The notes under the pieces were generated by a model. That model was not told where the DNA came from and did no database searches. It was given only the letters and a program-made list of their open reading frames with translations. A DNA stretch of 64,000 nt from Patescibacteria group bacterium (GTDB taxonomy: Bacteria; Patescibacteriota; Minisyncoccia; Phycocordibacterales; PALSA-1337), in the NCBI GenBank assembly GCA_040388415.1, contig JAZKBV010000003.1, positions 47,571 through 111,570 of the forward strand, written 5' to 3'. The position numbers were made by a program, and so were the translations under genes. Positions 3,698-46,597 of the stretch are shown here, in pieces (within the stretch, counting starts at the first letter, position 1; every line of letters begins with the position of its first letter).

Positions 3698-5125
3698 ATG
3701 AACCTCGGAAAGAAAACAAAGATCGTATGTACTATCGGCCCTGCTACAGAGACAGTCGAAAAGCTCGAAGCACTCGTCACTGCCGGCATGAACGTTATGC
3801 GCCTCAACTTCTCGCACGGAGATTTTGCTGAGCACCAAGGCCGCGTCGACAACCTTCGCACCGTCATGAAGAAGCTCGACAAGCCTGTCGCTATCCTCCA
3901 AGACCTCGGTGGCCCAAAGATCCGTATCGGCATGTTCAGCGATGAAAAGGGTATTGTGCTCAAGGCTGGCCAGACATTTACTCTCACCACAAACGAATCA
4001 GAAAAGCTCACCGGTGATGAACATCGCGTCTATATCAACTACCCAAAGCTTCCAAGTGAAGTGAAGGTTGGTGGTACGATCATGGTCCATGACGGCAAGA
4101 AACGTCTCCAGATCACCAAGATCAAAGGCAATGACATCATCTGTAAAGTCATCGTCGGTGGTCCTCTCGGCAACAAGAAGGGTGTCAACCTCCCAGACGC
4201 TGAGCTCACTATCCACGCTCTCACTGCAAAGGATCGCAAGGACCTTGAGTTCGGTCTCAAGAACAAGGTTGATTTCTTCGCACTTTCATTTGTCCGCCGT
4301 CCAGAAGATATCCATGAGCTCCGCGCTATCTTGAAGAAGGCAAAGTCAGACGCACGCATCATTGCAAAGATCGAGACTCCTCAGGCTCTCGATTGTCTCG
4401 ACGCTATCGTTGAAGCGGCTGACGGTATCATGGTTGCTCGTGGTGACCTCGCTATCGAGATCCCTGCAGAAGAAGTTCCTATCGCTCAAAAGCGCATGAT
4501 CGATGCCTGTATCGAAGCTGGCAAGCCAGTCATCGTTGCTACACAAATGCTCGAGTCTATGATCAAGAGTCCGATCCCAACACGCGCTGAAGTTTCAGAT
4601 GTCGCCAACGCTATCAAGGATGGCACAGATGCTATCATGCTTTCAGAGGAAACAACTCTCGGTGAGTACCCAGTTGAGGCAGTCCAGATGATGACCAAGA
4701 TCGCTCTCCGCGTCGAGCAAGATGCATGTTCATGTGAATCAATGGTTGATCATGTCGAAGCACACGGTGATACTGATGTCATCTCACAGGCTGCTGTTCG
4801 CATCGCCCATGACAGCAACGCATCATTCATCGTCGCTATGACTCGTTCAGGACGCACTGCGCGCATGATTGCTCGTTACCGCCCTGCAGAGCACACCCTC
4901 GTTATGTCAGATTCTCCAAAGCATTTGAACAAGCTCGCGCTATCATTCGGCTGTCAGCCAATCGAGACTGCTACATTCAAGACAGTAGAGGAGGCTATGG
5001 TCGTCGTTCGTGAAGTGGCTTTCAAGAACAAGCTCGCAAAGAAGGGGGAGAAAGTGGTCATCGTCTGGGGCTTCCCATTCGGCGGATCAAAGGATACCAA
5101 CCTTATCTTGGTTGAGACGCTTTAG
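3698..5125 (+). CDS. pyk: Pyruvate kinase
   Basis: KIVCTIGPAT, MNVMRLNFSHG, GDLAIEIP, MLESM motifs; 475 aa with C-terminal regulatory domain. Confidence 0.95.
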   Translation: MNLGKKTKIVCTIGPATETVEKLEALVTAGMNVMRLNFSHGDFAEHQGRVDNLRTVMKKLDKPVAILQDLGGPKIRIGMFSDEKGIVLKAGQTFTLTTNESEKLTGDEHRVYINYPKLPSEVKVGGTIMVHDGKKRLQITKIKGNDIICKVIVGGPLGNKKGVNLPDAELTIHALTAKDRKDLEFGLKNKVDFFALSFVRRPEDIHELRAILKKAKSDARIIAKIETPQALDCLDAIVEAADGIMVARGDLAIEIPAEEVPIAQKRMIDACIEAGKPVIVATQMLESMIKSPIPTRAEVSDVANAIKDGTDAIMLSEETTLGEYPVEAVQMMTKIALRVEQDACSCESMVDHVEAHGDTDVISQAAVRIAHDSNASFIVAMTRSGRTARMIARYRPAEHTLVMSDSPKHLNKLALSFGCQPIETATFKTVEEAMVVVREVAFKNKLAKKGEKVVIVWGFPFGGSKDTNLILVETL

Positions 5126-6390: not shown

Positions 6391-7785
6391 ATGCTCCATA
6401 CTGAAAGGCTCGTTGTGAATAAAAAACTAGAAGAAGCAGTCAAGTTCCTTGCGCAATTCAACCAAGTGGTAATGCATAAATCCCCGCACTTGGATGAAAT
6501 CGTGGCATATTATCTCCTCAAGGTATACGGCATGCTCAAGGCGAGTGTTCGCTTTGTTGATGCTGACATTACCGGGACAGAAGCTGATCATGATCGTAAT
6601 TGTGTCCTACCAATCGGTTGTGGTGACAATTGTCGCTTCAATGAGCATCGCAAAGGTATCGAGCGACTCAAGGGTGAATGCGCAACGACTCTCGCTGCAA
6701 AATTCCTTGGGATTAACGAACTACCGGAAGTAAAACGCCTCATCGCTGAAGTCCTTAAGTGCGACACCGAAGCAGGTTGCATGCCGACGCAGTTGGCTGA
6801 GTTGGTCAAGGTTGCCAATCGTTCTATGCCGGGAAATTATCTTGGCGTTCTGACATGGGTGACGACTGCTCTCAAGGCAATCATTCACAATGAGCAATAT
6901 CACTTCACGGCTCTTCCCGGCGAGAAATCTCTGGTGGATCTTTTGAAGGCGATGGATGCTGAAGGTAAATACTTCAGCGAGGATTCACGGATCCGTGAGC
7001 ACCTCTTCCGGATATCGCATGACAGTTTGCGCCGTTCGGACAAATGCATAACGGAACTCGCGTCAATATTGCAGGCCATGCATCGTTTGCCCTACAAGGC
7101 AGAGGATATCAGCACTTGGCTCGAGACTCCGCTCTTGCAGATTACTTCAGACCAGCTCCAGTTTTGGCAGCTGGTTGACCTGTATAAAAAGCAGGAAATC
7201 ATTCCGGTGCGCGCGATGGATAACCGTGGCGAATACGAGCTCAAGCTCATGGTCATCGAAAGCGATGATCTGCAAGCGCCTCGTGCAGCTCGGTTTACTG
7301 GTGCAGATATCGTTCTTTGCCGCACTTCGAAGGGTAACGTGATGATCTCTGTTGACACGCGAATCCCCGACCTCAATCTCTCCAACGTGGTCCGCATGAT
7401 ACGTTGGATGGATTTACCTAAGAAGATCACGAATGAGCCGAGTTGGCTTGACTTAGGTGTTCCTGGTGCGCACGACTTGCATTGTTTGGCGCATTGGTAT
7501 TACTTCAAGAAGGGAGAGCAGATCTTCAACGGAAGCCAGACACATTCTGCTCCGCCGACCAAGATACCTACGGAGGCGCTGGTGGAGGCCATCAAGTATG
7601 GTTTGCATCCGCACTATGTCAAAATGTGGTGCAATGATCGGCGCATCGTCATGAACCCGAAACGCTTGGCTGAGGCGATGCAACACAGAAAGCAATCATC
7701 GGAGAAGCCGGCCGGCGACATGGGATTGAAGATTGATCTTCAGCCGAAAAATCGGGCGGCGACTAATGTCGTTGCTGTAGCGTAA
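6391..7785 (+). CDS. Hypothetical protein; N-terminal HxxxHxDE motif reminiscent of MYG1/UPF0160 metal-dependent hydrolases
   Basis: 464 aa; MHKSPHLDEIVAYYLL near N-terminus; no other recognisable motif. Confidence 0.3.
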   Translation: MLHTERLVVNKKLEEAVKFLAQFNQVVMHKSPHLDEIVAYYLLKVYGMLKASVRFVDADITGTEADHDRNCVLPIGCGDNCRFNEHRKGIERLKGECATTLAAKFLGINELPEVKRLIAEVLKCDTEAGCMPTQLAELVKVANRSMPGNYLGVLTWVTTALKAIIHNEQYHFTALPGEKSLVDLLKAMDAEGKYFSEDSRIREHLFRISHDSLRRSDKCITELASILQAMHRLPYKAEDISTWLETPLLQITSDQLQFWQLVDLYKKQEIIPVRAMDNRGEYELKLMVIESDDLQAPRAARFTGADIVLCRTSKGNVMISVDTRIPDLNLSNVVRMIRWMDLPKKITNEPSWLDLGVPGAHDLHCLAHWYYFKKGEQIFNGSQTHSAPPTKIPTEALVEAIKYGLHPHYVKMWCNDRRIVMNPKRLAEAMQHRKQSSEKPAGDMGLKIDLQPKNRAATNVVAVA

Positions 7786-7870: not shown

Positions 7871-9220
7871 ATGCTCTATACTATCTCTATGAATACCCGA
7901 ACCTATTTCCAAGGAAAGCGCATCGCAGTCATAGGTCTGGGTCCGCACGGGGAAATGGTTGATGATGTGAAATTTCTCATAAAAGCAGATGCACTCGTCT
8001 CAGTGTATGATCTCCGTAGCGAAGCACGTCTCAAAAACCATATCATATTTCTTCGCTCAGTCGGCCTGGCGAACTATGTATGCAGCTCTATTCCGCCCGA
8101 TGATTTGCTCGATATGGATCTCATCATCTTGTCGCACGAGTATCCTCGCGATTCGTCCTTTCTCAAAGGCGCTCGTGAAAAGGGTATACAGATCGAATAC
8201 CCCGAAACTCTCTTTTTTCGTCTTGCGCCACCAGTGACAGTTGTCGGCGTCATGGGCGCATATGGCAAAGCCACGGTCGTCTCAGTGCTTGCGCCACTGT
8301 TGGAGATGGCCTGCGAAGCTGATGGCACTCAGGATATGTTCACGCTCGACCCGGAGTCCGGAGACGGTATCCTTATCGCATTGAAAAAGATAAAGAGCGG
8401 AGACATAGCACTCATACGCGTGATCGAATCTATGATGCCGGAACTTTATGAGATGCGCGTCAGCCCGCATGTCGCTATCTTTACGAGCGTTCCGCCGAAG
8501 GGCTCCTACACGACCTCGCCATTTGAGATACTAACCTATCAGACATATAACAATTTTATCATTGCGAGTGATGAGGTCATCGATGCTATCCATCGTTTCA
8601 AATTTCAGCCGAAGGCAAAGATGTTGCGTACGAAATCATCTATCATTCCGGCTTCGTGGTCGCTAGGCATTGAGAATGTAGGTCTTTGGAATCATGATCG
8701 CGATAATGCGGCGCTCGCTCTTCAGGCTGCGCAATTATTCAAGGTTCCTGATGAGGTTTCAGAGTCGCTTATGGAAAAATGGAAGCCGCTCAAAGGCAGG
8801 CTTGAATTCGTCAAAAAGGTAAAGAATATCGAATTTTATAATGATACTGCATCCGTTTCGCCCGGCTCTACGATCGTCGGCGTCCGTTGTTTGAATAAAG
8901 ATCGCAATCTCATTCTCATACTCGGTGGCGTTGATGCTGGCCAGGATTATAGAGAGTTGTATGCCGTATTACCGGTATGTGCTCATACAGTTATTTTGTT
9001 GCCTGGCAGCGGCACAATGAAAGAGCGTAAAACGTTGAATACGATTGATAATGTTACTGTTCTTTCAGCGCCAGATATCCAAGAAGCTGTCAGGCTTGCT
9101 CGTGACAATGCACGCCAAGGCGATCGAGTACTTTTCAGTCCAGGTTTTGCGGCTGGTGGACTTGAATCTTCACGCAAAGAGAGAGGAGAAGCGTTCGTGA
9201 GAGCAGTGAGGACGCTCTAA
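7871..9220 (+). CDS. Mur ligase family, MurD-like (UDP-MurNAc-L-Ala:D-Glu ligase-like) with divergent nucleotide-binding loop
   Basis: MurD-like N-terminal Rossmann (KRIAVIGLGPHG), central GAYGKAT in place of canonical G[ST]NGK[ST]T, C-terminal domain FYNDTAS / ILILGG. Confidence 0.55.
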   Translation: MLYTISMNTRTYFQGKRIAVIGLGPHGEMVDDVKFLIKADALVSVYDLRSEARLKNHIIFLRSVGLANYVCSSIPPDDLLDMDLIILSHEYPRDSSFLKGAREKGIQIEYPETLFFRLAPPVTVVGVMGAYGKATVVSVLAPLLEMACEADGTQDMFTLDPESGDGILIALKKIKSGDIALIRVIESMMPELYEMRVSPHVAIFTSVPPKGSYTTSPFEILTYQTYNNFIIASDEVIDAIHRFKFQPKAKMLRTKSSIIPASWSLGIENVGLWNHDRDNAALALQAAQLFKVPDEVSESLMEKWKPLKGRLEFVKKVKNIEFYNDTASVSPGSTIVGVRCLNKDRNLILILGGVDAGQDYRELYAVLPVCAHTVILLPGSGTMKERKTLNTIDNVTVLSAPDIQEAVRLARDNARQGDRVLFSPGFAAGGLESSRKERGEAFVRAVRTL

Positions 9221-9236
9221 GAAAATCGACTTAATT

Positions 9237-10118
9237 TTATTCGCCGCAAATAAGACAAACAACTGGCCCTTCAATTTTATGTCCTGCATACACTGCTTGC
9301 ATAGCGCCGACAACAGACAGTGCGCTGTTAGTTGAAATATCTAACCCGGTGTGTTTTTCGGTGAGCAGTTGAGCTGTCTCGATGTTTTCATTGGTTGCGA
9401 ACCAGCCATACCCGCCTGTCTTTTGAATGAGCGGGGTTAAGTCATTTTTTCTGTACGCTGTAATATCAGTGATTGCATCAGCGACCGAAGGCTCATCTGG
9501 CCCATCGTAGCTATTCAACCCATCAGAGAGCGGATGACATGAAGATGTTTGTATAATGTGTATCTGAGGAATCTTTGTGGCAGAATTATTTAAAAAATAT
9601 GTCGCCAATGCTTGAGCTGTCGTACCAGATGAGGTACCGATGAATATAGCACCGAGATTTTTGATCTGGCCAAGCTCTTCCGCGAGCGACTCATATCCTT
9701 TGAGAGCGAGGTTGTCGGTTGATTGGCGTAGACTGCGCATGCCATCATTCATCGCTTGAGTGAGTGCTTGGAGAGGGCGTTCTTTCTTGAGGATGCGGAT
9801 ATAGTCGTCGGCGTATGCGAGCAATTTTTGATATTTATGTTCAGCGACATGGTTTCCGACAAAAATATCTAATTCTAACAATGAATCTTTTTTCTCTTTG
9901 TTGAGTTTTTGGATATGGATAGCTGCAGCGAGCGCAGCATTTCCTGATGAAGAGATGGCAAAGCGGCTTTCTCCCTGATTGCGATACACTTCGATCATGA
10001 CTGGTATAGATCTGCCTTTATGTGAGCCATAGGGGCTCAAGTCTTCACGCTTGAAGTAAAGGTTGGTGACGCCAATGGCCGCTGCAAGGTCGCTATATTG
10101 TTCGAGGGGAGTCTGCAT
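9237..10118 (-). CDS. PLP-dependent fold-type-II enzyme, ACC deaminase/D-cysteine desulfhydrase-like
   Basis: LYFKREDLSPYGSHKGRS lysine motif, glycine-rich GTSSGTTAQ loop; 293 aa. Confidence 0.5.
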   Translation of the reverse strand: MQTPLEQYSDLAAAIGVTNLYFKREDLSPYGSHKGRSIPVMIEVYRNQGESRFAISSSGNAALAAAIHIQKLNKEKKDSLLELDIFVGNHVAEHKYQKLLAYADDYIRILKKERPLQALTQAMNDGMRSLRQSTDNLALKGYESLAEELGQIKNLGAIFIGTSSGTTAQALATYFLNNSATKIPQIHIIQTSSCHPLSDGLNSYDGPDEPSVADAITDITAYRKNDLTPLIQKTGGYGWFATNENIETAQLLTEKHTGLDISTNSALSVVGAMQAVYAGHKIEGPVVCLICGE

Positions 10119-10196: not shown

Positions 10197-10394
10197 ATGA
10201 TTCATCAAAACCTTAAAACCATGAATGCTAAACTTGTATGTCCAGAATGTAAAAATGACGTCGACCTATCGCGCTACCCAAACCTCGTCGTCGGTATGGT
10301 TGTCGAGTGTAACCACTGCGGTATGACGCTTGCTATCAAAGAGATCGCCGACAATGGCGAGGTCAAGGCAGATATCGTAGATGAGGGTAAATAA
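10197..10394 (+). CDS. LysW-like zinc-ribbon small protein (probable start at M9, nt 10221)
   Basis: CPECKNDVDL...PNLVVGMVVECNHCGMTLAI parallels LysW CPECGAELxLxNPELGExVxCxDCGAELEV, acidic C-terminal tail but ends DEGK, not the canonical terminal Glu. Confidence 0.4.
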   Translation: MIHQNLKTMNAKLVCPECKNDVDLSRYPNLVVGMVVECNHCGMTLAIKEIADNGEVKADIVDEGK

Positions 10395-10408: not shown

Positions 10409-11812
10409 TTAGCGGAGCTTATTGACTGTTTCCTCGATCATTCCTCTGAAGCCGTGTGACCCAAGAAAGACGATGCAGTCGTCTTTTTTTGTTTCTGCGA
10501 TGAGGAAGTTAACCAAAGCGGCGTCGTCTTCAAAGTACTTTACATTTTTGTGCGTTTGTTCGATCGTTTGAACCAGATCCGTGCCTTCCATAGGTTTAGC
10601 TGAATCGTCCTCGGGCACTTTGAGTTTTGTGAGACGGGGAATGACAACGACGTCAGCATCTTTAAAAGCATTGTCATATTTGTGGGCAGTTTCGTACTGA
10701 CGTCCACCGATGTTCGGTTCATATACTGCGATAATGTTGCTCTTGTACACTTCTCGGACGCTTTCGAGGACCGAGGTCGCTTTTTCGGCAGTCGGCGCAT
10801 GGCAGTCGAGGAGAGTAACGTCTCCTTCAAATCTTTTTTCAAAGCGGCGTTTGATGCCTTTGAAGTCTTTGATGGCATCGATGATCTTGTCTGTAGGTAT
10901 GCCGACTTCGTGCGCCATGGCAAAAGCAGCAGTTATATTTTCCACATTGAAACGTCCAAGCATTGGTGAATGAATTTCATAGCAGGCATCTTTTGATGTG
11001 ATCTGAAAATGAAGGCCATTTTTCGTGTAGGCGATAGAGTGATATGAATAGTCTGCAGATTCGTTTTTGCCGTAGGTGACGGCTTTTTTTCCCGTAGCCT
11101 CAAGAGTTTTTTTGACGCCATTTTCATCGATACATGCAACGATGAGACCGTCATCTGGAATGCCGGCAACTAATCTTTCAAATGTATCGAAGTAGTCCTT
11201 TTCCGTAGGATAAAGATCAGCATGGTCCCATGAGACAGAAGTGAGAAGGAGATAGGTAGGAGCATAGTACACGAACTTTGGACGGCGGTCTGAGATAGAG
11301 ACTTGGTACTCATCACCCTCGACGACGCTCCAATCAGAATCAGAAAGCGCGCCCGTAGGATGTGAAAGCGAAAGTCCACCGGTAAAATAACTTGGTGTGC
11401 GACCGCTACTGATCATGATAAATGAAAGAAGGGCGGATGCTGTCGTCTTGCCCCATGTGCCAGCAACCACGATTGAATTCTTTTTTATAAAGTATTTCTG
11501 AAGGACTTCGGCATATGAGAATGCAGGGATATTATGTTCTTGTGCGTATAGCGTTTCAGGATTAGAAGGGCTTGTACCGGTGCCACCGATCATGACGAAG
11601 TCAGGCGGTACGTTTCCGTTTGGACAGATGTTCTCAGGGTGCCAGCCAGCATAGTATTCGACGCCCGCATCTTTGAGGTATGTTGAAACAGGAGGAAAGA
11701 AACCCTTATCTGATCCAGTTACTTTGACGCCGGCTTTATGAAAAGCGATAGCGAGCGCGCTGGTTGCTACGCCGCAGATACCGATGACGTGGACGTGTTT
11801 AGGAAGATTCAT
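10409..11812 (-). CDS. Mur ligase, MurC/Mpl family (UDP-N-acetylmuramate:amino acid/peptide ligase)
   Basis: N-terminal HVHVIGICGVATSALAIAFHKAGVKVTGSDKGFFPPVSTYL (Mpl/MurC-type), P-loop VAGTWGKTT, 467 aa. Confidence 0.75.
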   Translation of the reverse strand: MNLPKHVHVIGICGVATSALAIAFHKAGVKVTGSDKGFFPPVSTYLKDAGVEYYAGWHPENICPNGNVPPDFVMIGGTGTSPSNPETLYAQEHNIPAFSYAEVLQKYFIKKNSIVVAGTWGKTTASALLSFIMISSGRTPSYFTGGLSLSHPTGALSDSDWSVVEGDEYQVSISDRRPKFVYYAPTYLLLTSVSWDHADLYPTEKDYFDTFERLVAGIPDDGLIVACIDENGVKKTLEATGKKAVTYGKNESADYSYHSIAYTKNGLHFQITSKDACYEIHSPMLGRFNVENITAAFAMAHEVGIPTDKIIDAIKDFKGIKRRFEKRFEGDVTLLDCHAPTAEKATSVLESVREVYKSNIIAVYEPNIGGRQYETAHKYDNAFKDADVVVIPRLTKLKVPEDDSAKPMEGTDLVQTIEQTHKNVKYFEDDAALVNFLIAETKKDDCIVFLGSHGFRGMIEETVNKLR

Positions 11813-11835: not shown

Positions 11836-12513
11836 TTATTTCTTCACGAGTATTTTCTTCACTTCTTCAAGATCATCTGACCACTTTGTGCCATCGAACC
11901 ACTCAAGTCCAGCAAATTGGAGCTTGTAGGTATCTGTTGGGCGCTGGAGGGAACCGAGATAGACATATTTTTTAACTGTACCTTTCGCGTGGCTGATAGC
12001 CATGGTCATCATTCCCATGCCCATATCTTTTGGCGACATGTCGATATGATAAAACGGATATGAGTAATGTAGAATGTTTTTATTTTCATAACATATAGCG
12101 TAGCCAAGATTCTCCGCATCTTTTGAATATATGAAAAGGTTTGTGAAGTTGCTCTTGTTGGCATCCGTCAGCATCTCTTTTATCTTTTGCGCGCTCATGA
12201 TGCCTGGTCCGAACTTTTTCTCATAGAAATATTTCGCATCCATAGCCAACTTGTAATTGTAGTCTTTCAAAGGCACTTCAGTCGATTTGAGACTGAGTTC
12301 TTTATCAGTTGCGCCGACCTTCTTCAAAATCCTTTTATTTTCACTCGATAGCTCGAATTTACTCAAATCGATGCGCACGCTTCTTGTCTGGTGCATAACT
12401 CCTTTGCCGATGCGTGTAAAGACATAGCCCTGATCGTACATATCAGAGATATTCTTATCTGAAAAGTCAGTGATTATTTTTTCATTCCAGTGAAGGTATT
12501 CCATATAAACCAA
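11836..12513 (-). CDS. Aminoacyl-tRNA--protein transferase-like protein (Bpt/ATE_C-like, GNAT fold)
   Basis: C-terminal KYVYLGS...YKLQFAGLEWFDGTKW resembles Bpt/ATE1 C-terminal motif KYLYLGYWI..M.YK..F.P.E.L..G.W; 225 aa. Confidence 0.4.
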   Translation of the reverse strand: MVYMEYLHWNEKIITDFSDKNISDMYDQGYVFTRIGKGVMHQTRSVRIDLSKFELSSENKRILKKVGATDKELSLKSTEVPLKDYNYKLAMDAKYFYEKKFGPGIMSAQKIKEMLTDANKSNFTNLFIYSKDAENLGYAICYENKNILHYSYPFYHIDMSPKDMGMGMMTMAISHAKGTVKKYVYLGSLQRPTDTYKLQFAGLEWFDGTKWSDDLEEVKKILVKK

Positions 12514-12516
12514 GGG

Positions 12517-13644
12517 TTAGTGCAACGCCAGCCAGAATCCGAATACGACGAAGATAAAATGAATGACCCAGAAACGCATGACAGTTTTTTCTTCACTCCA
12601 ACCTTTGATCTCAAAATGATGATGAAGAGGAGCCATAGCAAAGACTTTTCTGCCAAAGAGGTATCGTGAGCCGACTTGTATGAGGACTGAAAAAGCTTCG
12701 ATATAGAACATGAAGCCGAGGAAAAAGAGAGAGCTGAGCTCACCGATAGCGAGCGTGTTCACTGCGAGGAGGGCACCCAAGCCGAGCGATCCCACGTCGC
12801 CCATCATGAATCGAGCTGGTTTGATATTGAAATACGTATAGGTCGCCAGTGCACCCACGGTTGTCGCATTCAGAATAGCGATCTCTCCAAAACCGTTGAT
12901 CCATGAGAGGAGGGCGAGGGCGCTAAATGTGGTGACGAGCATGCCGCCAGCGAGGCCGTCCATGCCATCAGCGATGTTGACTGCATTCGCTGTGAACATA
13001 ACTACAAGGATGACGATCGGCACGATGAACCAACCTGCATCGATCGCGAAGTTGAAAGGAAAATAGATGAAATGCCACGCAGGCCCGAGTCTCCAATAGA
13101 CCCACCAGGCGGTCACACTTCCAGCGATGAATTGGAGGATGAGCTTTTCATGGACAAGGACACCGCGACGTGTACGCGAACCGAACCAGACTGAGAGGCG
13201 CTTGAACATAGTCCAAGGGAGCGTGATGATGTACCAGAGACGCATCGACCACTGCTTGTGGATGCGTATGAGTATGAGGATATGTTTGAGCTTGCGTGAA
13301 TGGCGTTCTGCGCCATATATGCTCATGAGATCGTCGACTCCTCCCAAAAGAGCAGAGATGAGCATAACTGCAATCGGTACCCACGTAAAACTGCGAGACC
13401 AATTGAAAAGGAATGTGATGATAGCCACTGTCAGGATGACGAGTAGTCCTCCCATGACTGGTGTTTTTGATTTATATGCATGTGAGCCGAGCCCTTGAAG
13501 CTCAGTTTTGGCTCCTTTGACGACATTGTAGCGATAGAGCAGTCGAGTGAGGAATGGTGCCCAGAGAAAAGAAACGATGGTGCCTGCCAGCATAAAACCC
13601 ATAATATAAGCCAAATCAGCGGTTCCTTGGAGAATGCTTAACAT
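12517..13644 (-). CDS. mraY: Phospho-N-acetylmuramoyl-pentapeptide transferase
   Basis: KSKTPVMGGL, NAVNIADGMDGLAGG, MGDVGSLGLG, APLHHHFE motifs; 10 TM. Confidence 0.9.
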   Translation of the reverse strand: MLSILQGTADLAYIMGFMLAGTIVSFLWAPFLTRLLYRYNVVKGAKTELQGLGSHAYKSKTPVMGGLLVILTVAIITFLFNWSRSFTWVPIAVMLISALLGGVDDLMSIYGAERHSRKLKHILILIRIHKQWSMRLWYIITLPWTMFKRLSVWFGSRTRRGVLVHEKLILQFIAGSVTAWWVYWRLGPAWHFIYFPFNFAIDAGWFIVPIVILVVMFTANAVNIADGMDGLAGGMLVTTFSALALLSWINGFGEIAILNATTVGALATYTYFNIKPARFMMGDVGSLGLGALLAVNTLAIGELSSLFFLGFMFYIEAFSVLIQVGSRYLFGRKVFAMAPLHHHFEIKGWSEEKTVMRFWVIHFIFVVFGFWLALH

Positions 13645-13684: not shown

Positions 13685-14464
13685 TTAGGAGAAGATGTGC
13701 AGGCGTCGAAGCGAGGTGAGTGATTTTTGTGCACGGGCATATATACGGTTCATTGGGCCCGTAGTGCCACCTTCGGTCCAAACTTGTTCAGTGATCGGTT
13801 TTTCTGGATTAAGTATCTCGACGACGCCTTGCTTGATGCCGCTTCCGTATATGCCATCTTCAGGATACGCGACTGCATGCGCATAGTGTATTTTTGCTGG
13901 AGTGAAGTTTTGATATTCAATCTGATATATGACAAGCACATGATCGCGATCTGTGCCATCAGGTCCGCCGATCATAGTAATGATATCTCCAGGTTGAGCT
14001 TCTTTGATCTCGATTGTTCTACTGTTTTTCTCATGAGCAAATGTTGCGACGTCACAATTCTCGATAGGGCGGAGAGCGCAGCGTACTTTACCGATCAATC
14101 CGGTGCAGTTAATGAAATGTATATGTTTGTCGAGCGATCCTTTTTTTAATTCTTGGGATTCAGTATTCAATACATAGTAAGCAAATGCTGAACAGTCGAT
14201 ACCTATGTTGTTATCAGTGAGTGTTTTTTTGAGGAGCTCATTTGTGACTGCCGACTGATCAGCATGATCTTTGAGCATGATGCTCTTTATCTCCTCGAAT
14301 ATTTCTTGCGGGCTACCTTTGCCTATAGTGCTTCGGAGGGCGGCGCGTGCTCGCGTCGTCTTGTTGTTGAAATAAGGTATAGAGCAAACCGCTCCGCCAA
14401 TAGTAAAATGGAGATATTGGTCGATGACAGATAAGGCTCGGTTTGAGAGTGTCTTGGTATTCAT
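13685..14464 (-). CDS. Putative papain-fold cysteine hydrolase (NlpC/P60-CHAP-like)
   Basis: GIDCSAFAYYVL (Cys motif) and GDIITMIGG...DHVLVIY (His motif) in correct order; 259 aa. Confidence 0.35.
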   Translation of the reverse strand: MNTKTLSNRALSVIDQYLHFTIGGAVCSIPYFNNKTTRARAALRSTIGKGSPQEIFEEIKSIMLKDHADQSAVTNELLKKTLTDNNIGIDCSAFAYYVLNTESQELKKGSLDKHIHFINCTGLIGKVRCALRPIENCDVATFAHEKNSRTIEIKEAQPGDIITMIGGPDGTDRDHVLVIYQIEYQNFTPAKIHYAHAVAYPEDGIYGSGIKQGVVEILNPEKPITEQVWTEGGTTGPMNRIYARAQKSLTSLRRLHIFS

Positions 14465-14479
14465 ATGTGGATTATATCA

Positions 14480-15730
14480 CTACTGACTGCTCATCACGTC
14501 GACGATCTCTTTTCCTCGCTTGTTGAATCTACCATGAGTCTCCATGATGCCAAGCATGCTCTGGATACGGAGAAGATCAGTATTCTCATCAATATTAGGG
14601 TAAAGAATAGTCTGATGTCCAAGCTTGGCAAGAGCTTGTAACTGTTTATCAGAAATACTTTGTGTGATGCGGGTCACGCGCTGGATGATCTGTGAGCCGT
14701 CGTTTATCGGAATGATGCGCTCTTCTCCTTTCTCCTTTCTCCTTTCTTCTAATGCGCCAAGGTGCGCCTCAAATATAGTCTGACCATCGACGCCGAGCTC
14801 ACGATTCTTCTGTTGCAACTGCGACTCATATGTCGTTGATGCTGGCTGGCGCGCATTGATCTCGATCAAGAATATCTTGTTCAATTCATCGTCGCGCATA
14901 ACATCGATGCCGAAGAGGCCTCTCCAACCGTCAGTCTGTAGTTTGCCTGCTACATCGGTAGCCATGGCTTCTATGACGCCGATCTCATCTTCATTCAATA
15001 GGGAATGGGTGAGCGACCAGTCGTTACCTATTGTGGTGAACAGATTTTCGGTGAATGGGGGAATACCAGTGATCTGGTAGCTGATATTGCCGAGAAATAT
15101 ATTTTTTTCACTGACTACGACATTGAGTGTGAACGAAGGGCCGTGCACATATGAACTGACGCGCGCAAGTCTTTCAGGAAATTTTTCTTGCACAGCTTTG
15201 AGTTCATCGGCTGAATTGACCAATGTGGTACCGAGACCCGTATGGCTATGGGCCCATTGAATGATTAACGGCTTCTTATTCCACATGATATCTTTGGCTA
15301 TGGTAAGCGAATGAGCAGGGAGGTATTTTTCACCGAGTGCGCCAAGATATTCTACTTGGGTCATTTTATTTTCGATCTTTTCTGCGAGCATGCTTGAGGG
15401 GTTCAACAAGTTCCAGTTATTTTTTTTGCAGATTTCTTCTATCTGAGGTGTATTTTTGAATACAAGAATCGAGATATTATTTACAGCGATATTTTTAATG
15501 AATGAATGGACAGCCTCATGGTTGAGCAACTCGCGCGTATCCAAAAGCTCGCCATCTTTTTGCGTTGTTTCTATCAAATGAATAAAGTCAGGATAGATTT
15601 TTTTGACTGATTCCGCATACGCAGTCTTATTCGCCATGATTTGATAGCCTGCATGTGGCTGTGCGCCTAAAGCGCGTTCAATATCGCGTGTGACGTAGAG
15701 TGCAACAGGGGTTTCGGATGATTTTGCCAT
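14480..15730 (-). CDS. ATP-grasp domain ligase with N-terminal extra domain
   Basis: C-terminal GWRGLFGIDVM...KIFLIEINARQ ATP-grasp signature; 416 aa. Confidence 0.6.
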   Translation of the reverse strand: MAKSSETPVALYVTRDIERALGAQPHAGYQIMANKTAYAESVKKIYPDFIHLIETTQKDGELLDTRELLNHEAVHSFIKNIAVNNISILVFKNTPQIEEICKKNNWNLLNPSSMLAEKIENKMTQVEYLGALGEKYLPAHSLTIAKDIMWNKKPLIIQWAHSHTGLGTTLVNSADELKAVQEKFPERLARVSSYVHGPSFTLNVVVSEKNIFLGNISYQITGIPPFTENLFTTIGNDWSLTHSLLNEDEIGVIEAMATDVAGKLQTDGWRGLFGIDVMRDDELNKIFLIEINARQPASTTYESQLQQKNRELGVDGQTIFEAHLGALEERRKEKGEERIIPINDGSQIIQRVTRITQSISDKQLQALAKLGHQTILYPNIDENTDLLRIQSMLGIMETHGRFNKRGKEIVDVMSSQ

Positions 15731-17004: not shown

Positions 17005-17289
17005 ATGTCAAAACGCCAATTAATTATTCTATTTGCTGCTCTTATTATTTTATTCACTCTCGTTCTAGGTCTACGGTCAGTGTGGACGTCGACGCTCAAC
17101 ATCATATTGGCTCTTCTTATCATCGCGGTTGCGTATACAACCACTCGACCATCTCAAAATTCGGCCAAGAAATCAATGAATGCGCCGTACGTCGACGCTC
17201 ATGGTGGCACATCATCCGCGCCAGCATTCCGCGCTCCTGCTCCGTCTGAACCTGAACCAGAAGCAAAAGAACCAACTCCACAAATATAA
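17005..17289 (+). CDS. Small membrane protein with Pro/Ala/Glu-rich tail (94 aa)
   Basis: ATG at 17005 preceded by TATAAT at ~16990; one or two TM helices (LIILFAALIILFTLVLGL; LNIILALLIIAVAY). Confidence 0.45.
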   Translation: MSKRQLIILFAALIILFTLVLGLRSVWTSTLNIILALLIIAVAYTTTRPSQNSAKKSMNAPYVDAHGGTSSAPAFRAPAPSEPEPEAKEPTPQI

Positions 17290-18524
17290 TGAAGATTCGC
17301 GAGTATAGCGCAAAAGCCCAGATCGCAACGGTCATTGTAGTGGCTTTTGTTCTTGTCCTTGCAGGTGTCTCGTGTGCGTGGTTCTTGCCACTCGGTAAAG
17401 TTTCATATTCAGATCAATCAGCTTATGCCGCTACGAGCACACCTGCTGTTGTCGCAGTTGAAATTGCCTCTACAACTCCTGTATTTGTGGTCACCCATAT
17501 CACTACACCTCAACCAGTCAAAGCGGCATACTATACCAGTTGGGCTGCGGGCACACCTTCATTTAAAAAACAAATGTTCGCGCTCATCGATGATTCTGAG
17601 CTTAATAGTCTCGTCATCGACGTAAAAGATTATAGTGGACGAATCAGTTTTCCCATGGATGACCCAAAGATACGTAAGATAGGATCGGTGCAGGAGCGCA
17701 TCCCTGAGATCAAAGAGATGATAGGGCAGCTTCATGACAAGGGTATATATGTCATCGGCCGGGTGGCAGTCTTCCAGGATCCATTTATTGTGAAGGTCCA
17801 CCCTGAATGGGCGGTGCTCGACAAACGAACAGGTAAACAATGGAAAGATTCGGGCGGTGCATATTGGGCTGATCCAGACAAAAAAGAGATGTGGGATTAT
17901 GTCACTACGATCGCCAAAGAGGCATATGCGGTCGGCTTTGATGAAATCAATTTTGACTACGTACGTTTTCCTTCTGATGGTGCTCTTGGCAATGCTCTAT
18001 TTGATAAGCCAGCAAGTACGACGAAGGCAGTTGCACTCAAAGAGTTTTTCTCATATCTACATGATGAATTATCACCACTTGGTATCACGATTTCAGCGGA
18101 TATTTTTGGTCAGGTGACAAGCGATAAAGGAGACATGGGCATAGGTCAGCATTTTGAGAATGTATTGCCATATTTTGATTACGTCAGTCCTATGGTATAT
18201 CCGTCCCATTACATCTCAGGATTTTTGAATTATACAAAGCCCGCAGAGCATCCTTACGAGATCGTTAAATATGAATTGGATACAGCGGTAGCGCGAGCAA
18301 TCGCTGCTTCATCAAGCCCAGAGAAGATCCGTCCATGGCTTCAGGCATTCGATCTCGGCGCTATCTATACACCTGCAATGGTTCATACCCAGATGCAAGC
18401 CACAGCTGACGCGGGCGCGAATGGGTGGCTGCTTTGGAATGCAGGATCAGTGTACAAGAGGGAATTTGTCATGCCATATATGCACGCAACGACTACAGCA
18501 AAAGCTCCTGTGAAAGTCATATAG
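17289..18524 (+). CDS. Putative secreted/membrane-anchored glycoside hydrolase-like TIM-barrel protein (DUF4015/GHL-like)
   Basis: N-terminal TM anchor, then SLVIDVKDYSG, YVIGRVAVFQD, GFDEINFDYVRFP, YVSPMVYPSHY motifs typical of putative glycosyl hydrolase-like family. Confidence 0.4.
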   Translation: MKIREYSAKAQIATVIVVAFVLVLAGVSCAWFLPLGKVSYSDQSAYAATSTPAVVAVEIASTTPVFVVTHITTPQPVKAAYYTSWAAGTPSFKKQMFALIDDSELNSLVIDVKDYSGRISFPMDDPKIRKIGSVQERIPEIKEMIGQLHDKGIYVIGRVAVFQDPFIVKVHPEWAVLDKRTGKQWKDSGGAYWADPDKKEMWDYVTTIAKEAYAVGFDEINFDYVRFPSDGALGNALFDKPASTTKAVALKEFFSYLHDELSPLGITISADIFGQVTSDKGDMGIGQHFENVLPYFDYVSPMVYPSHYISGFLNYTKPAEHPYEIVKYELDTAVARAIAASSSPEKIRPWLQAFDLGAIYTPAMVHTQMQATADAGANGWLLWNAGSVYKREFVMPYMHATTTAKAPVKVI

Positions 18525-18662
18525 TCGCTCTTGCGCTTTTTCGTAGGAGTGGTACTATTTATATCCGGAGCACACTGGCCTGGAACTATCGAAACCAGAC
18601 CTGCACGCATAGTGTAAGGTGTGCTGCTCATTCAAAGTTAGTCAAACAAAGAAAGACATGTT

Positions 18663-18893
18663 ATGGCAAGAAAAATTGTGGCAGACGTACCGGAAACGCC
18701 GGTTGTGAACAGCAGCAAAATCACCAGGATGGTCAACCGCATTGTCGACGAAGCACCGATTGCAGGTTCCTATCTCTCTGTGTCACTCAGACGCGGGGAT
18801 GAAAAAATGAACACGTTGGTGAATGGAAACACCATCGACGGTGCGAAGCAGGCAGTTCGCGTGTTCGTCCAGGAAGGCTGGGTCCCGGCGTAA
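18663..18893 (+). CDS. Hypothetical small protein (76 aa)
   Basis: ORF preceded by structured leader, followed by intrinsic terminator. Confidence 0.4.
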   Translation: MARKIVADVPETPVVNSSKITRMVNRIVDEAPIAGSYLSVSLRRGDEKMNTLVNGNTIDGAKQAVRVFVQEGWVPA

Positions 18894-18923
18894 TTCGTAT
18901 TTGTCACCATAACTTTTATATGC

Positions 18924-18960
18924 AACCCGACGCCTGGAGGCCGTCGGGTTGTTTTCTTTT
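18924..18960 (+). terminator. Rho-independent terminator
   Basis: aacccgacg-loop-cgtcgggtt followed by gttttctttt. Confidence 0.6.
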
Positions 18961-19014
18961 GTTTATAGTTGCTACTTAATTTATGATACAATAGTATCAA
19001 ACACCGTTATTTAT

Positions 19015-20952
19015 ATGGACGACAACCGCGTTACATATTTCGCCGAGACTGATGCCCGCAACAAACGGGTAAAGTTTGGCATCAAGTCTATCGATCGCAC
19101 CAAGCACGTCTATGTGATTGGTAAAACAGGCATGGGCAAGTCTACCTTGCTCGAGAACATGGCTGTGCAAGATATTCAGAATGGAGCCGGCATGGCATTC
19201 ATCGATCCACACGGAAAGACCGCTGACCTCCTCCTTGAGTATGTTCCAAAAGAGCGTATCCGCGACGTCATTGTCATTGCGCCATTTGATACGGATTATC
19301 CTATTTCATTCAACGTTCTTGAAAGCGTTGATCCAAAGAAACGTCACCTCGTCGTCGGCGGTCTCATGAGCACCTTCAAAAAGATCTGGGAAGATGCCTG
19401 GTCAGCGCGTATGGAGTATATTTTGACCAATACGCTTCTTGCTCTTCTCGAAGTGCCAGGTACAACTCTCCTCGGTGTCAACCGTTTGCTTTCCGATAAG
19501 GCATATAGAAATGAGATTGTCGCTCAAGTCCAAGATCCTTCGGTCAAGGCTTTTTGGGTAAAAGAGTTCGCCAACTATACTGAGCGTCAGGCCGCTGAAG
19601 CCGTGCCTGCAATCCAAAATAAAGTTGGTCAATTTACTGCAAATCCATTGATCAGAAACATGATTGGTCAGCCGGTTTCGTCTTTTGATTTTCGTAAAGC
19701 GATGGATGAAGGGAAGATCATCATTATCAACCTTTCAAAAGGACGCATCGGCGACGAGAATATGAAGCTCCTTGGAGGATTGCTTGTGACCAAGATTTAC
19801 CTCGCTGCCATGTCGCGCGCTGATGTGCCAGATCGTGTGGTCAAGATGTTGCCACATTTCTATCTTTTTGTGGATGAATTCCAAAACTTCGCCAATGCGT
19901 CATTCTCCGACATTCTCTCAGAGTCGCGTAAATACAAGCTCAACCTCACTATCGCTCATCAATATATCGAACAAATGGATGAAAATGTCAGTGCTGCTGT
20001 ATTCGGCAACGTGGGTACTATGATTGTATTCCGCGTGGGCGCGACTGATGCAGAAGCACTTGAAAAGGAATTCGCTCCTCAGTTCACTATGGAGGATCTG
20101 GTAAATCTCGGACAGTTCCAGATGTATCTCAAGCTTATGATCAACGGACTGACATCTGCGCCATTTTCTGCTACATCGATGCCACCTATACCACAGCAAA
20201 AAATCTCATATGTAAAAGAGATTATGGATGCATCACGCGAGCAGTTTGCTCGTCCACGTGCTGAAGTTGAAGAGATTATTATGAAATTCCATGAGCCGAC
20301 ACCTGCACCAAAGAAGGAGCCTGTAGCCGGTAAAGCGCCCCTTACTGGTGACTTGAGGAAGCCTGAGCAAAAAATGCCGCCAGCTCCTGTACCAAAAGCT
20401 GACGCACCGGCGACTGTGCCAATGCCAACATCAGCGCCAAAGCCAGAGCAAAGACCAGTTTCAAAATTCGTCCCACCAGTGAGAGCGACTGCGCCCTCGC
20501 CGTTGCTCAAAGATACACTTGCAAAGCTTGTTGCACAGCCACGACCTGCGCCGAAGGAAACCCCGCCTCCTGCACCAAAGCTTGAAGTTGAGCCAGCAGA
20601 AGCCAAGCATCAGCCATTCAAAAAAGCTTTTGATGCAGTTCAGTCGACGAAACCTACGCCACTTACAAATCCCGCTCCGGTACCAGTTCCAGTGCCAGCC
20701 GTAAGACCTGTATCGCTTTCTGCTTTGAGTAAACCAAGCCTTGTCTCGTCAGCTTCGCCCGCATCGCCACGTCCCGATCAGAAAGCACAGACGCCTCAAA
20801 ATGTCAGCCAATTAAAAAATGCGTTGGCGGCAGCACTTGCGAAATCGAAGCCCGCGGATACACAGAAGCCAATTGAGACAATTAAGCCAGTTTCAGAGCA
20901 GCCAAACGAGGTTCCCGAAGAAGTGCTCAAGAAGGTCTTGAAGATTGACTAA
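19015..20952 (+). CDS. TraD/TrwB/VirD4-like type IV secretion coupling-protein ATPase with long Pro/Ala/Lys-rich low-complexity C-terminal tail
   Basis: Walker A VIGKTGMGKSTLL, Walker B HFYLFVDEFQNF, TIAHQYIEQM; start moved to ATG 19015 because track ORF start lies inside upstream terminator; last ~240 aa PAPKKEP/PAPVP repeats. Confidence 0.55.
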   Translation: MDDNRVTYFAETDARNKRVKFGIKSIDRTKHVYVIGKTGMGKSTLLENMAVQDIQNGAGMAFIDPHGKTADLLLEYVPKERIRDVIVIAPFDTDYPISFNVLESVDPKKRHLVVGGLMSTFKKIWEDAWSARMEYILTNTLLALLEVPGTTLLGVNRLLSDKAYRNEIVAQVQDPSVKAFWVKEFANYTERQAAEAVPAIQNKVGQFTANPLIRNMIGQPVSSFDFRKAMDEGKIIIINLSKGRIGDENMKLLGGLLVTKIYLAAMSRADVPDRVVKMLPHFYLFVDEFQNFANASFSDILSESRKYKLNLTIAHQYIEQMDENVSAAVFGNVGTMIVFRVGATDAEALEKEFAPQFTMEDLVNLGQFQMYLKLMINGLTSAPFSATSMPPIPQQKISYVKEIMDASREQFARPRAEVEEIIMKFHEPTPAPKKEPVAGKAPLTGDLRKPEQKMPPAPVPKADAPATVPMPTSAPKPEQRPVSKFVPPVRATAPSPLLKDTLAKLVAQPRPAPKETPPPAPKLEVEPAEAKHQPFKKAFDAVQSTKPTPLTNPAPVPVPVPAVRPVSLSALSKPSLVSSASPASPRPDQKAQTPQNVSQLKNALAAALAKSKPADTQKPIETIKPVSEQPNEVPEEVLKKVLKID

Positions 20953-45502: not shown

Positions 45503-46597
45503 ATGATTATTCAAGAAAATATATCTCTAGCTCAATATACGACATTCAAGATCGGCGGTTCAGCTCGATTTTTTTGTTTAGTGACGGGCATAGATGAATT
45601 AAAGGAAGCAGTCAAGTTCGCAAAAGAAAAAAACGTACCTTTCTTTGTCCTTGGTGGAGGGTCAAATGTGCTCATCTCAGATGAAGGATTCCATGGCCTG
45701 GTCATAAAGATGGAGATAAAGGGGAAAGTTAAAAGGCAAAAGTTAAAAGGCAAAAATGAAAGTCAAAAGAGTGAAAATATAGAACTTGAGATTGTTTCTG
45801 CTGGCGCAGGAGAAATGTGGGATGATTTTGTCGAATGGACACTTGCTAACGGTTTCAATGGATTGGAAAATCTTTCAGCTATTCCTGGCACTGTCGGCGC
45901 TGCGCCTGTGCAGAATATCGGCGCGTATGGAGCAGAGATCGGACAGTTTGTTTCGAGTGTTCATGCATTTGATACTCATACGATGAAAGAGATTGAATTG
46001 AATGCTCGTGACTGTCATTTCGGTTACAGAAACAGCTTGTTCAAACACGAAAAGGGAAGATATATTGTCACTTGCGTTGATTTTTCTTTGAAGAAAGATG
46101 GGAAGGTGAATGTTGAGTACAGGGATTTGAAGGAGTATTTTAATAAGTTACAAGTGACAAGTGGACCCAGTGGCGAATCTGCTGATTCGAAGGTACAAGA
46201 AATCACACCATCGCAGGTTCGTGAGGCAGTGATTGATATTCGTTGGCATAAATTGCCTGATTGGAATAAGTGGGGCACTGCAGGATCGTTTTTCAAAAAC
46301 CCTGTGGTCACACAAGAAAAGTTTGATGAGTTGAAAGTTAAGTACCCAGCGATGCCGAGCTTCCCCGAGGCTAGTGGCGGCGTCAAAATACCGCTTGGTT
46401 GGATACTCGATAATGTGTGTCATCTCAAAGGCGTTATGACTGGCGGTGTAGGCACCTATGAAAAGCAGGCACTGGTCATCGTCACCAAGCCAGGAGCTAA
46501 AGCAAAAGAGGTAGTCGATTTTACGCATGATTTGATGAAGCAAGTGAAGGACGCGACCGGGATTACGATCGAAGCTGAGGTGGAATGGGTGAATTAG
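45503..46597 (+). CDS. murB: UDP-N-acetylenolpyruvoylglucosamine reductase
   Basis: FAD-binding FKIGGSARFF, VLGGGSNVL; C-terminal MurB domain; contains short Lys-rich tandem-repeat insertion. Confidence 0.9.
   Translation: MIIQENISLAQYTTFKIGGSARFFCLVTGIDELKEAVKFAKEKNVPFFVLGGGSNVLISDEGFHGLVIKMEIKGKVKRQKLKGKNESQKSENIELEIVSAGAGEMWDDFVEWTLANGFNGLENLSAIPGTVGAAPVQNIGAYGAEIGQFVSSVHAFDTHTMKEIELNARDCHFGYRNSLFKHEKGRYIVTCVDFSLKKDGKVNVEYRDLKEYFNKLQVTSGPSGESADSKVQEITPSQVREAVIDIRWHKLPDWNKWGTAGSFFKNPVVTQEKFDELKVKYPAMPSFPEASGGVKIPLGWILDNVCHLKGVMTGGVGTYEKQALVIVTKPGAKAKEVVDFTHDLMKQVKDATGITIEAEVEWVN

Follow-up and report, generated by a model that had tools for sequence, protein, structure and literature searches.

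A Bpt/ATE1-like protein encoded beside Mur ligase genes in Patescibacteria is a candidate tRNA-dependent aminoacyl transferase of peptidoglycan-precursor synthesis

The tRNA-dependent enzymes of peptidoglycan synthesis known to us all belong to the FemABX/MurM family, and to our knowledge the Bpt/ATE1 family serves only to tag protein N-termini for degradation. A literature search found no ATE or Bpt homologue linked to peptidoglycan or to the cell walls of the Candidate Phyla Radiation (CPR), and neither tRNA-dependent wall enzymes nor a cell-wall analysis for CPR bacteria; its coverage was incomplete, and this is absence of evidence only. Here we describe a gene from a 64,000-nucleotide stretch of a Patescibacteria genome (contig JAZKBV010000003.1; the whole stretch is called the window below), located on the minus strand at 11836-12513. 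Its product is a true but divergent member of the Bpt/ATE1 superfamily. From its fold, its conserved residues and its gene neighbourhood, the protein may well be a tRNA-dependent aminoacyl transferase that acts on an amine of a peptidoglycan precursor, a proposal for which we consider the case about evenly balanced.

A preliminary description of this DNA had placed an open reading frame (ORF) with an ATE_C-type C-terminus between a Mur ligase gene and mraY. The translation of 11836-12513 does carry the C-terminal motif quoted there, KKYVYLGSLQRPTDTYKLQFAGLEWFDGTKW, and the flanking genes match TIGR01082 and TIGR00445 on the same strand. All three genes lie on the minus strand, with gaps of 12 nt between mraY and the candidate and 23 nt between the candidate and the murC-like gene; a promoter and terminator scan, which gave nothing informative inside the operon, showed no terminator-like site between them. 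Because all of the homologues (25/25 aligned) begin MEYLHW, the likeliest start is the ATG at 12504, giving a protein of 222 amino acids, and not the TTG at 12513 three codons upstream. Residue numbers follow the 225-residue ORF as listed from that TTG. The features on which the argument turns are these:

11836-12504, minus strand: candidate Bpt/ATE1-like transferase, cysteine-poor, 222 amino acids (start, conservation, profiles, AlphaFold2 model, fold matches and hhalign)
11923-11928, minus strand: codons of the invariant aromatic-Lys pair Y196-K197 (homologue alignments, hhalign against Bpt)
12319-12345, minus strand: codons of S57-K65 (SSENKRILKK in the window protein), a conserved basic helix, H57-65 in the model (alignments, model, hhalign)
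12049-12069, minus strand: codons of H149-Y155 (HYSYPFY), an aromatic strand aligned with Bpt SAVYTFY (alignments, hhalign)
12517-13644, minus strand: mraY, phospho-MurNAc-pentapeptide transferase, directly upstream (TIGR00445, E 6e-54)
10409-11812, minus strand: murC/mpl-like Mur ligase, directly downstream (TIGR01082, E 1e-75)

The Pfam searches that the preliminary description had proposed give a mixed answer. PF04377 (ATE_C) is matched marginally, with 17.6 bits and E 0.006, under the Pfam gathering score of 25; divergent relatives score 23.3, 25.5 and 29.8 bits. At E<=1, the window protein matches neither PF04376 (ATE_N) nor PF02388 (FemAB), and it likewise matches neither Leu_Phe_trans nor the C-terminal domain of MprF (DUF2156/LPG_synthase_C). 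Membership in the Fem, Aat or aminoacyl-phosphatidylglycerol synthase (aaPGS) families was rejected on these Pfam results. All seven NCBIfam Bpt/arginyltransferase models match residues 42-213 (E 7e-9 to 1e-6), at 28.8-35.8 bits versus equivalog cut-offs of 170-358, which are not reached; divergent members match the Bpt models at up to E 1e-14. Aligned with Bpt by hhalign, the broad family gives a probability of 98.2% and E 5e-14 over 181 columns, covering Bpt residues 42-233 of 235, and for the Paceibacteria subfamily by itself the values are 89% and E 2e-6. The Bpt reference consisted of ten aligned Pseudomonas Bpt database proteins carrying both PF04376 and PF04377, and its low diversity limits the precision at the level of single residues. 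Two hhalign runs differ by one residue around HYxYxFY, YLG and YK, where the reference P0180 has an insertion. Given this disagreement, we trust equivalences between motifs and treat statements on the pocket as tentative.

The structure prediction points the same way. An AlphaFold2 model built from a 26-sequence alignment is confident, with a predicted local distance difference test (pLDDT) score of 92.3 and a predicted template modelling (pTM) score of 0.90, and it has the ATE1-type fold, namely a Gcn5-related N-acetyltransferase (GNAT) core with a small N-terminal domain. When the PDB was searched with Foldseek, human ATE1 ranked first (E 1e-9, query template modelling score 0.71), and the top 50 matches are all aminoacyl-tRNA-dependent transferases: ATE1, A-PGS/L-PGS/MprF, FemX, Sba18 and L/F-transferase. 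Sequence-profile searches of the PDB, in contrast, match generic GNAT motif-A acetyltransferases (best 3d8p, E 0.001); eukaryotic ATE1 goes undetected by sequence profiles, and no Bpt chain is among the matches of the PDB searches. Pfam acetyltransferase models match the window protein at E 0.12-0.14. A generic GNAT acetyltransferase was rejected, since aminoacyl-tRNA transferases rank clearly higher by structure, the Bpt profiles span 170-180 residues and the glycine of the coenzyme A (CoA) loop is not conserved.

What emerges is thus not a set of unrelated GNAT enzymes devoid of ATE_C similarity but a match to Bpt profiles and, by Foldseek, to ATE1; the kinship proposed in the preliminary description stands on hhalign, the NCBIfam models and the Foldseek matches. 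One part of that description has to be amended: it had paired Leu/Phe-tRNA transferases with ATE_C, and Aat (PF03588) is a different family, so that the bacterial relative is Bpt. Most likely, the candidate would descend from the Bpt/ATE1 aminoacyl-tRNA-protein transferases, with the metal-binding cysteines of ATE_N lost.

Searches among clusters at 90% identity returned 1,705 relatives at E<=1e-3, the best 120 of which are 59-100% identical to the window protein, 201-258 amino acids long and from metagenome-assembled genomes (MAGs) of Patescibacteria. When 1.84 billion representatives at 50% identity were scanned exhaustively with HMMER, 440 clusters passed E<=1e-3 and 84 passed E<=1e-30; given the 440, the family is compact and distinct from mainstream Bpt, whose clusters at 90% identity number at least 7,918 with a single query. 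The scan also brought in divergent members of about 245-280 amino acids that begin MKLLFSExxPDYxxYxFPY and are 25-40% identical to the window protein. An alignment of 26 sequences at 61-85% identity has 63 invariant columns, and the conserved motifs are GYVFTR, M(H/Q)QTRSxR, SSENRRILKK, HYSYPFY, KDMGLGMM and YLGSLQRPxDTYKLQFxGLEWFDG. With the divergent members included, the positions G29, R47, R61, Y150, G165, Y185, G187, Y196, K197, G208 and W211 are invariant family-wide. The candidate is constrained as strongly as the adjoining Mur ligases: median identity to the window proteins is 60.7% for the candidate, 56.8% for MurC and 59.2% for MurD.

Several of these invariant residues are those expected of a tRNA-dependent transferase. 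The Y196-K197 pair, found in 27/27 family sequences, is aligned with Y216-K217 of Bpt and, as judged from the alignments, corresponds to Y303-K304 of klAte1 and F304-K305 of FemX, the last equivalence being drawn through klAte1 as stated in PMC9351520. In klAte1, either substitution, K304A or Y303F, abolishes activity, and K304 corresponds to the catalytic K305 of FemX (PMC9351520). The basic helix S57-K65 (SSENRRILKK) aligns with Bpt NRQQKRILKRN; R61 and K65 are conserved across the family, K65 in 26/27 sequences. A basic helix that reads the acceptor stem's major groove is a common hallmark of tRNA-dependent GNAT transferases (PMC9351520, PMC10115844), and S57-K65 is likely to be such a helix, a structural equivalence predicted from the alignments and not from superposition. 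R47, which is aligned with Bpt R71, and the aromatic strand HYSYPFY are kept as well, and Y150 of that strand is invariant family-wide.

Other features of Bpt are lost or doubtful. At the positions of Bpt C61, C64 and C67 the family has K/P, F/Y/M and A/T/S, the N-terminal cysteine region is missing, and the window protein contains a single cysteine (family median 1, versus 6 in Bpt). The arginine R80 in the GFRRSG motif of klAte1 recognises the acidic N-terminal residue of the substrate (PMC9351520). In one hhalign register the GFRRSG arginine pair falls opposite V31/F32 and in the other opposite T33/R34, residue 34 being arginine in 15/27 sequences. The positions that form the arginine pocket of klAte1 (S255, S273, E277 and Y289, equivalent to Bpt A168, A185, Q189 and L201; PMC9351520) correspond to Y150, M168, A172 and V184 of the candidate in one hhalign register, the other shifting them by one residue. 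These residues are hydrophobic and bulkier, and none is acidic; hence arginine is an unlikely donor. We tentatively conclude that the amino acid transferred is probably not arginine. A small neutral donor would be compatible with such a pocket, and the repeated association with murC and alanine racemase leads us to guess at Ala or Gly.

These losses bear on the simplest alternative, that the candidate is a true N-degron enzyme like Bpt, whose position among cell-wall genes is incidental or serves to control the turnover of cell-wall enzymes. Its nearest sequence family is indeed Bpt, and the databases lean that way, JGI labelling relatives 'arginyl-tRNA-protein transferase' and UniRef and JGI also giving arginyl or N-end-rule transferase, with 'hypothetical protein' at NCBI. 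However, the scores stay at 29-36 bits, far under the equivalog cut-offs; ATE_N and its cysteines are missing; the GFRRSG arginine pair is probably not conserved; and the family stands as a small group apart from the bulk of Bpt. In addition, no clpS, clpA or aat gene was found within the 64-kb window, and the neighbours in five lineages (four from the CPR with Mur ligases, and Verrucomicrobiota with the alanine racemase gene alr) are peptidoglycan genes, never protease genes. An N-degron role is therefore very unlikely in our estimate, and the label 'arginyl-tRNA-protein transferase' is probably wrong for this family.

The neighbourhood was compared across lineages, beginning with Paceibacteria-type loci from 80 GTDB species representatives that have a copy 52-86% identical to the window protein; the counts are from loci with enough flank. 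In this sample mraY is the upstream neighbour, on the same strand, in 74/74 loci, at a median gap of 16 nt, and the murC-like gene lies downstream on the same strand in 65/65 (median gap 70 nt), and the remainder of the cell-wall block is nearly always present. Because these genomes are related, such synteny alone could be inherited. The divergent members supply independent cases of the link to the cell wall. In a Dojkabacteria MAG, the candidate is followed by murC, pgeF (Cu-oxidase_4), murB on the opposite strand, and murA, and further downstream come mraZ and rsmH. Microgenomates-type metagenome loci, one of them named Woesebacteria, show the order mraZ-rsmH-ftsI-murE-candidate-murC-murB-murA-murF-mraY, with gaps of 4-17 nt or overlaps, and keep it in 18/18 loci having downstream flank. 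The Woesebacteria locus (L110) has two murE paralogues, and its ligase beside the candidate fits Mpl slightly better than MurC by score. A fourth group has, directly upstream of the candidate, a Mur ligase consisting of M and C domains only.

Outside the CPR, the homologue in Verrucomicrobiota (Limisphaerales) has alr (TIGR00492, E 1e-110) directly upstream in 25/38 loci and within 2.5 kb in 35/38. The two genes often overlap by 4 nt (L118, 3491-6801, and 53 similar loci among L108-L164), and the homologue thus appears from the sequence to be translationally coupled to alanine racemase. An ATP-grasp gene upstream of alr in these loci was dropped as a partner: it is divergent and purD-like (97 bits versus a cut-off of 288), has no similarity to the ATP-grasp gene of the window and is not counted as evidence. 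Across the lineages, then, the neighbour on the other side varies (mraY, murE or none), while an association with a Mur ligase or with alanine metabolism is constant.

This pattern also speaks to another possibility, namely that the enzyme aminoacylates a lipid or other envelope polymer, as MprF and aaPGS do, instead of a stem peptide. We regard it as highly improbable: the candidate is a compact soluble domain with neither a membrane segment nor a fused flippase, its homology is to Bpt and not to aaPGS, whose domain (DUF2156/LPG_synthase_C) it fails to match, and it is a cytoplasmic Mur ligase or alr, not mraY, that stays with it from lineage to lineage. As for the Fem/MurM-like role suggested in the preliminary description, the adjacency to Mur ligases in four CPR lineages and to alr strengthens it, but the protein itself is not a FemABX enzyme, having no PF02388 match and a single GNAT domain; the function assigned to it is inferred.

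Returning to the proposed tRNA-dependent transfer to a peptidoglycan precursor, we picture a soluble enzyme of one GNAT domain that would have been recruited from Bpt/ATE1 stock to precursor synthesis. The basic helix SSENRRILKK and the aromatic patch would dock the acceptor stem and the CCA end of an aminoacyl-tRNA, and, if the gene context is a guide, the amino group of a muropeptide precursor would attack the aminoacyl ester. K197, following Y196, may stabilise the tetrahedral intermediate as do K304 of klAte1 and K305 of FemX, a role suggested by its conservation. Once the stem peptide is finished, its sole free amine is that on the side chain of residue 3. The likeliest acceptor would accordingly be that free side-chain amine in UDP-N-acetylmuramoyl-peptide (UDP-MurNAc-peptide) or in lipid I/II, and the product would be a branched or extended stem peptide, making the enzyme a functional analogue of FemX and MurM built on another member of the fold superfamily. 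The murE-candidate adjacency in the Microgenomates-type loci fits an action just after MurE, as with Weissella FemX, which uses UDP-MurNAc-pentapeptide (PMC2655667, PMC2175331).

A number of observations weigh against this proposal. The link to peptidoglycan comes from the gene neighbourhood alone, and the Verrucomicrobiota loci have no Mur gene within 6 kb. As far as we know, branched stem peptides are expected to be unusual in diderm Verrucomicrobiota. The histidine that contacts the CCA end, H178 in klAte1, which we take to be Bpt H118 by the spacing of the motifs and not by a computed alignment, aligns with F101 of the candidate (Phe in 21/27 family sequences), in an insecure register. Furthermore, ATP-grasp genes recur near the candidate, a hint of a possible donor other than tRNA, and one relative (P0262, 809 amino acids; L084, 6001-8430) is fused to PPDK_N, an ATP-grasp-type domain, and to swivel domains of phosphoenolpyruvate (PEP) utilizers, with a Mur ligase 5 kb upstream. 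The fusion comes from a single low-coverage metagenome contig, and could be either an assembly artefact or a further hint of such a donor.

Given these hints, the candidate might be a tRNA-independent GNAT acyltransferase that modifies a peptidoglycan precursor from acyl-CoA or from an acyl or aminoacyl phosphate, the latter made by a nearby ATP-grasp or Mur ligase. The profile searches of the PDB, which match generic GNAT motif A alone, would be in keeping with this, as would the K-D-M-G-L-G of the window protein, which resembles the Q/RxxGxG/A CoA loop, and the ATP-grasp genes nearby in two lineages together with the PPDK_N fusion. However, in 17/27 sequences the second glycine of the loop is replaced by W, Y, F or some other residue, so that CoA binding is not a family-wide trait, and the aromatic-Lys pair and basic helix that are particular to tRNA-dependent members do not vary. 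The fusion, moreover, is seen once at low coverage, and the ATP-grasp gene of Verrucomicrobiota is the purD-like one set aside above. Hence, we consider a tRNA-independent reaction quite unlikely.

Within the window, the candidate belongs to a co-directional run that opens with an ATP-grasp gene and continues with an NlpC/P60-like gene, mraY, the candidate and the murC-like gene. The other cell-wall features of the window are the following, PLP standing for pyridoxal 5'-phosphate:

14480-15730, minus strand: ATP-grasp ligase, weakly Ddl/PylC-like, 416 amino acids (profiles, PDB search, synteny)
13685-14464, minus strand: NlpC/P60-like cysteine peptidase (NLPC_P60, E 1e-4; synteny)
10197-10394, plus strand: LysW-like zinc-ribbon protein, 65 amino acids (Pfam E 2.6e-5, NCBIfam E 5.7e-6, both below cut-off)
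9237-10118, minus strand: fold-type II PLP enzyme, threonine-synthase-/dehydratase-like, 293 amino acids (best PDB match 2zsj, E 4e-7; synteny)
7871-9220, plus strand: murD-like Mur ligase in the conserved block (murD 130 against 212, under the NCBIfam equivalog cut-off)
45503-46597: murB

The ATP-grasp protein matches D-Ala-D-Ala ligases (best in the PDB, E 0.004), an archaeal pseudomurein Ddl-like model (E 7e-4) and PylC (E 9e-3); in this lineage it may take the place of Ddl, or else ligate side-chain amino acids. The NlpC/P60-like peptidase has intact Cys (GIDCSAF) and His (DHVLVIY) motifs, and its N-terminus, in which no hydrophobic segment was seen by eye without a signal-peptide predictor, suggests a cytoplasmic enzyme. 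Its gene keeps its place upstream of mraY in related genomes, and distant homologues of it flank the murE'-candidate-murC trio in the Woesebacteria locus, at 3903-4697 (minus strand) and 8103-8807 (plus strand). The gene for the fold-type II PLP enzyme is conserved beside the LysW-like gene and murD; its product might act as a racemase or supply the stem peptide with a non-standard amino acid. Verrucomicrobiota offer a parallel in the alanine racemase that is coupled to the homologue there. The LysW-like protein ends in E(I/V)VDEGK, with VDEGK present in 57/64 syntenic loci. LysW-type carriers use a C-terminal Glu, and the tail in the window ends in Lys instead; the protein may nonetheless be a carrier for an amino-acid pathway attached to the cell-wall block.

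These neighbours give weight to a variant in which a tRNA-dependent enzyme would do its work ahead of the Mur ligase. Here an L-amino acid such as L-Ala would be placed on the free alpha-amine of a D-amino acid or stem-peptide fragment (D-Glu or gamma-D-Glu-diamino acid, for example), host-derived scavenged fragments among them, and the murC/mpl-like ligase would then load the product onto UDP-MurNAc. Such a reaction would explain the cytoplasmic NlpC/P60 peptidase, which recurs beside the candidate in two lineages, and the racemase-type partners, alr in Verrucomicrobiota and the fold-type II PLP enzyme in the window. It is also consistent with the preference that Bpt/ATE1 enzymes have ancestrally for an acidic N-terminal residue whose amine is free (PMC9351520), and with the constant partner ligase, which scores about equally as MurC and as Mpl and stays below both NCBIfam equivalog cut-offs (255 against 335 for murC, 197 against 389 for mpl). 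However, the arginines that would read an acidic acceptor lie opposite V31/F32 in one register, and the other register leaves R34 alone, which is not conserved family-wide; and with a murD-like gene in the block, the classical route is not obviously missing. We therefore hold this variant to be unlikely, if worth keeping in view.

A broader form of the proposed transfer to a precursor would make this Bpt/ATE1-derived, non-FemABX enzyme a core tRNA-dependent precursor step in much of the CPR and in some Verrucomicrobiota, with an eight-gene module in Paceibacteria. That module would comprise the candidate, the ATP-grasp ligase, the cytoplasmic NlpC/P60 peptidase, mraY, the murC/mpl-like ligase, murD, the fold-type II PLP enzyme and the LysW-like VDEGK carrier, and would assemble or remodel a non-canonical stem peptide, perhaps out of fragments scavenged from the host. 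On this reading, the N-degron transferases and a cell-wall enzyme would be of recent common origin, and the wall of these bacteria would be made by an undescribed route. We think so wide a role unlikely.

Around the block, a plus-strand ORF of 464 amino acids at 6391-7785 has no Pfam match and is 25-51% identical to proteins encoded beside murD in a few related genomes. On the plus strand at 17289-20952, a putative glycoside hydrolase (DUF4015) is followed by a TraG/VirD4-like type IV coupling protein, a pair conserved beside the cell-wall block in relatives (L001). From 20973 to 45236 there is a large surface-polysaccharide or glycosylation locus, with a run of glycosyltransferases (GT1/GT4, GT2, GT11 and GT17-like), sugar-nucleotide enzymes (a GDP-mannose 4,6-dehydratase, a DegT aminotransferase and epimerases), methyltransferases, a Wzx-type flippase and an O-antigen-ligase/TPR protein.

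Should the transfer to a peptidoglycan precursor prove correct, the fold shared by Bpt/ATE1 and FemABX would have been recruited to wall synthesis a second time and independently. A clonable enzyme of 222 amino acids would then be a concrete handle on the composition of the wall of these bacteria.

Among known systems, Bpt (the PRK01305 models, ATE_N plus ATE_C) is the closest. The homology is near full-length, the two proteins have 222 and 235 amino acids, and they share R47 (Bpt R71), the helix ENRRILKK (QQKRILKRN in Bpt), xYxYxFYD (AVYTFYD in Bpt), YLG and the YK pair. Unlike Bpt, the candidate has none of the cysteines C17, C61, C64 and C67, has probably lost the GFRRSG arginine pair and the pocket for the acidic residue, appears to have (K/R)F in place of RH118, and belongs to a separate, compact family beside peptidoglycan genes; bpt usually neighbours aat/clpS-type genes. 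Eukaryotic ATE1 (8tzv, 7wfx, 8e3s, 7tif) is about twice the size of the candidate, which has no Zn or Fe-S site and no variable C-terminal domain, shows no sequence similarity to ATE1 by HMMER against the PDB and, by alignment only, has a donor pocket without the acidic residue (E277 in klAte1) that suits it to arginine.

FemX of Weissella viridescens, and FemABX and MurM in general, have two tandem GNAT-like domains in about 330-420 amino acids, whereas the candidate has one in about 220, without a coiled-coil insert and without the PF02388 signature; in common are the aromatic-Lys pair (F304-K305 in FemX) and the genomic link to peptidoglycan-precursor genes. The aaPGS domain of MprF/LpiA (DUF2156) is a tandem GNAT on a membrane flippase with a lipid hydroxyl as acceptor, unlike the free, soluble candidate, which it does not match. 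Aat (PF03588) resembles the candidate in its fold superfamily and small single-domain form, and has a tRNA-dependent chemistry of its own. The candidate belongs to a different branch of the superfamily from FemABX, so that its recruitment to cell-wall synthesis would be an independent one.

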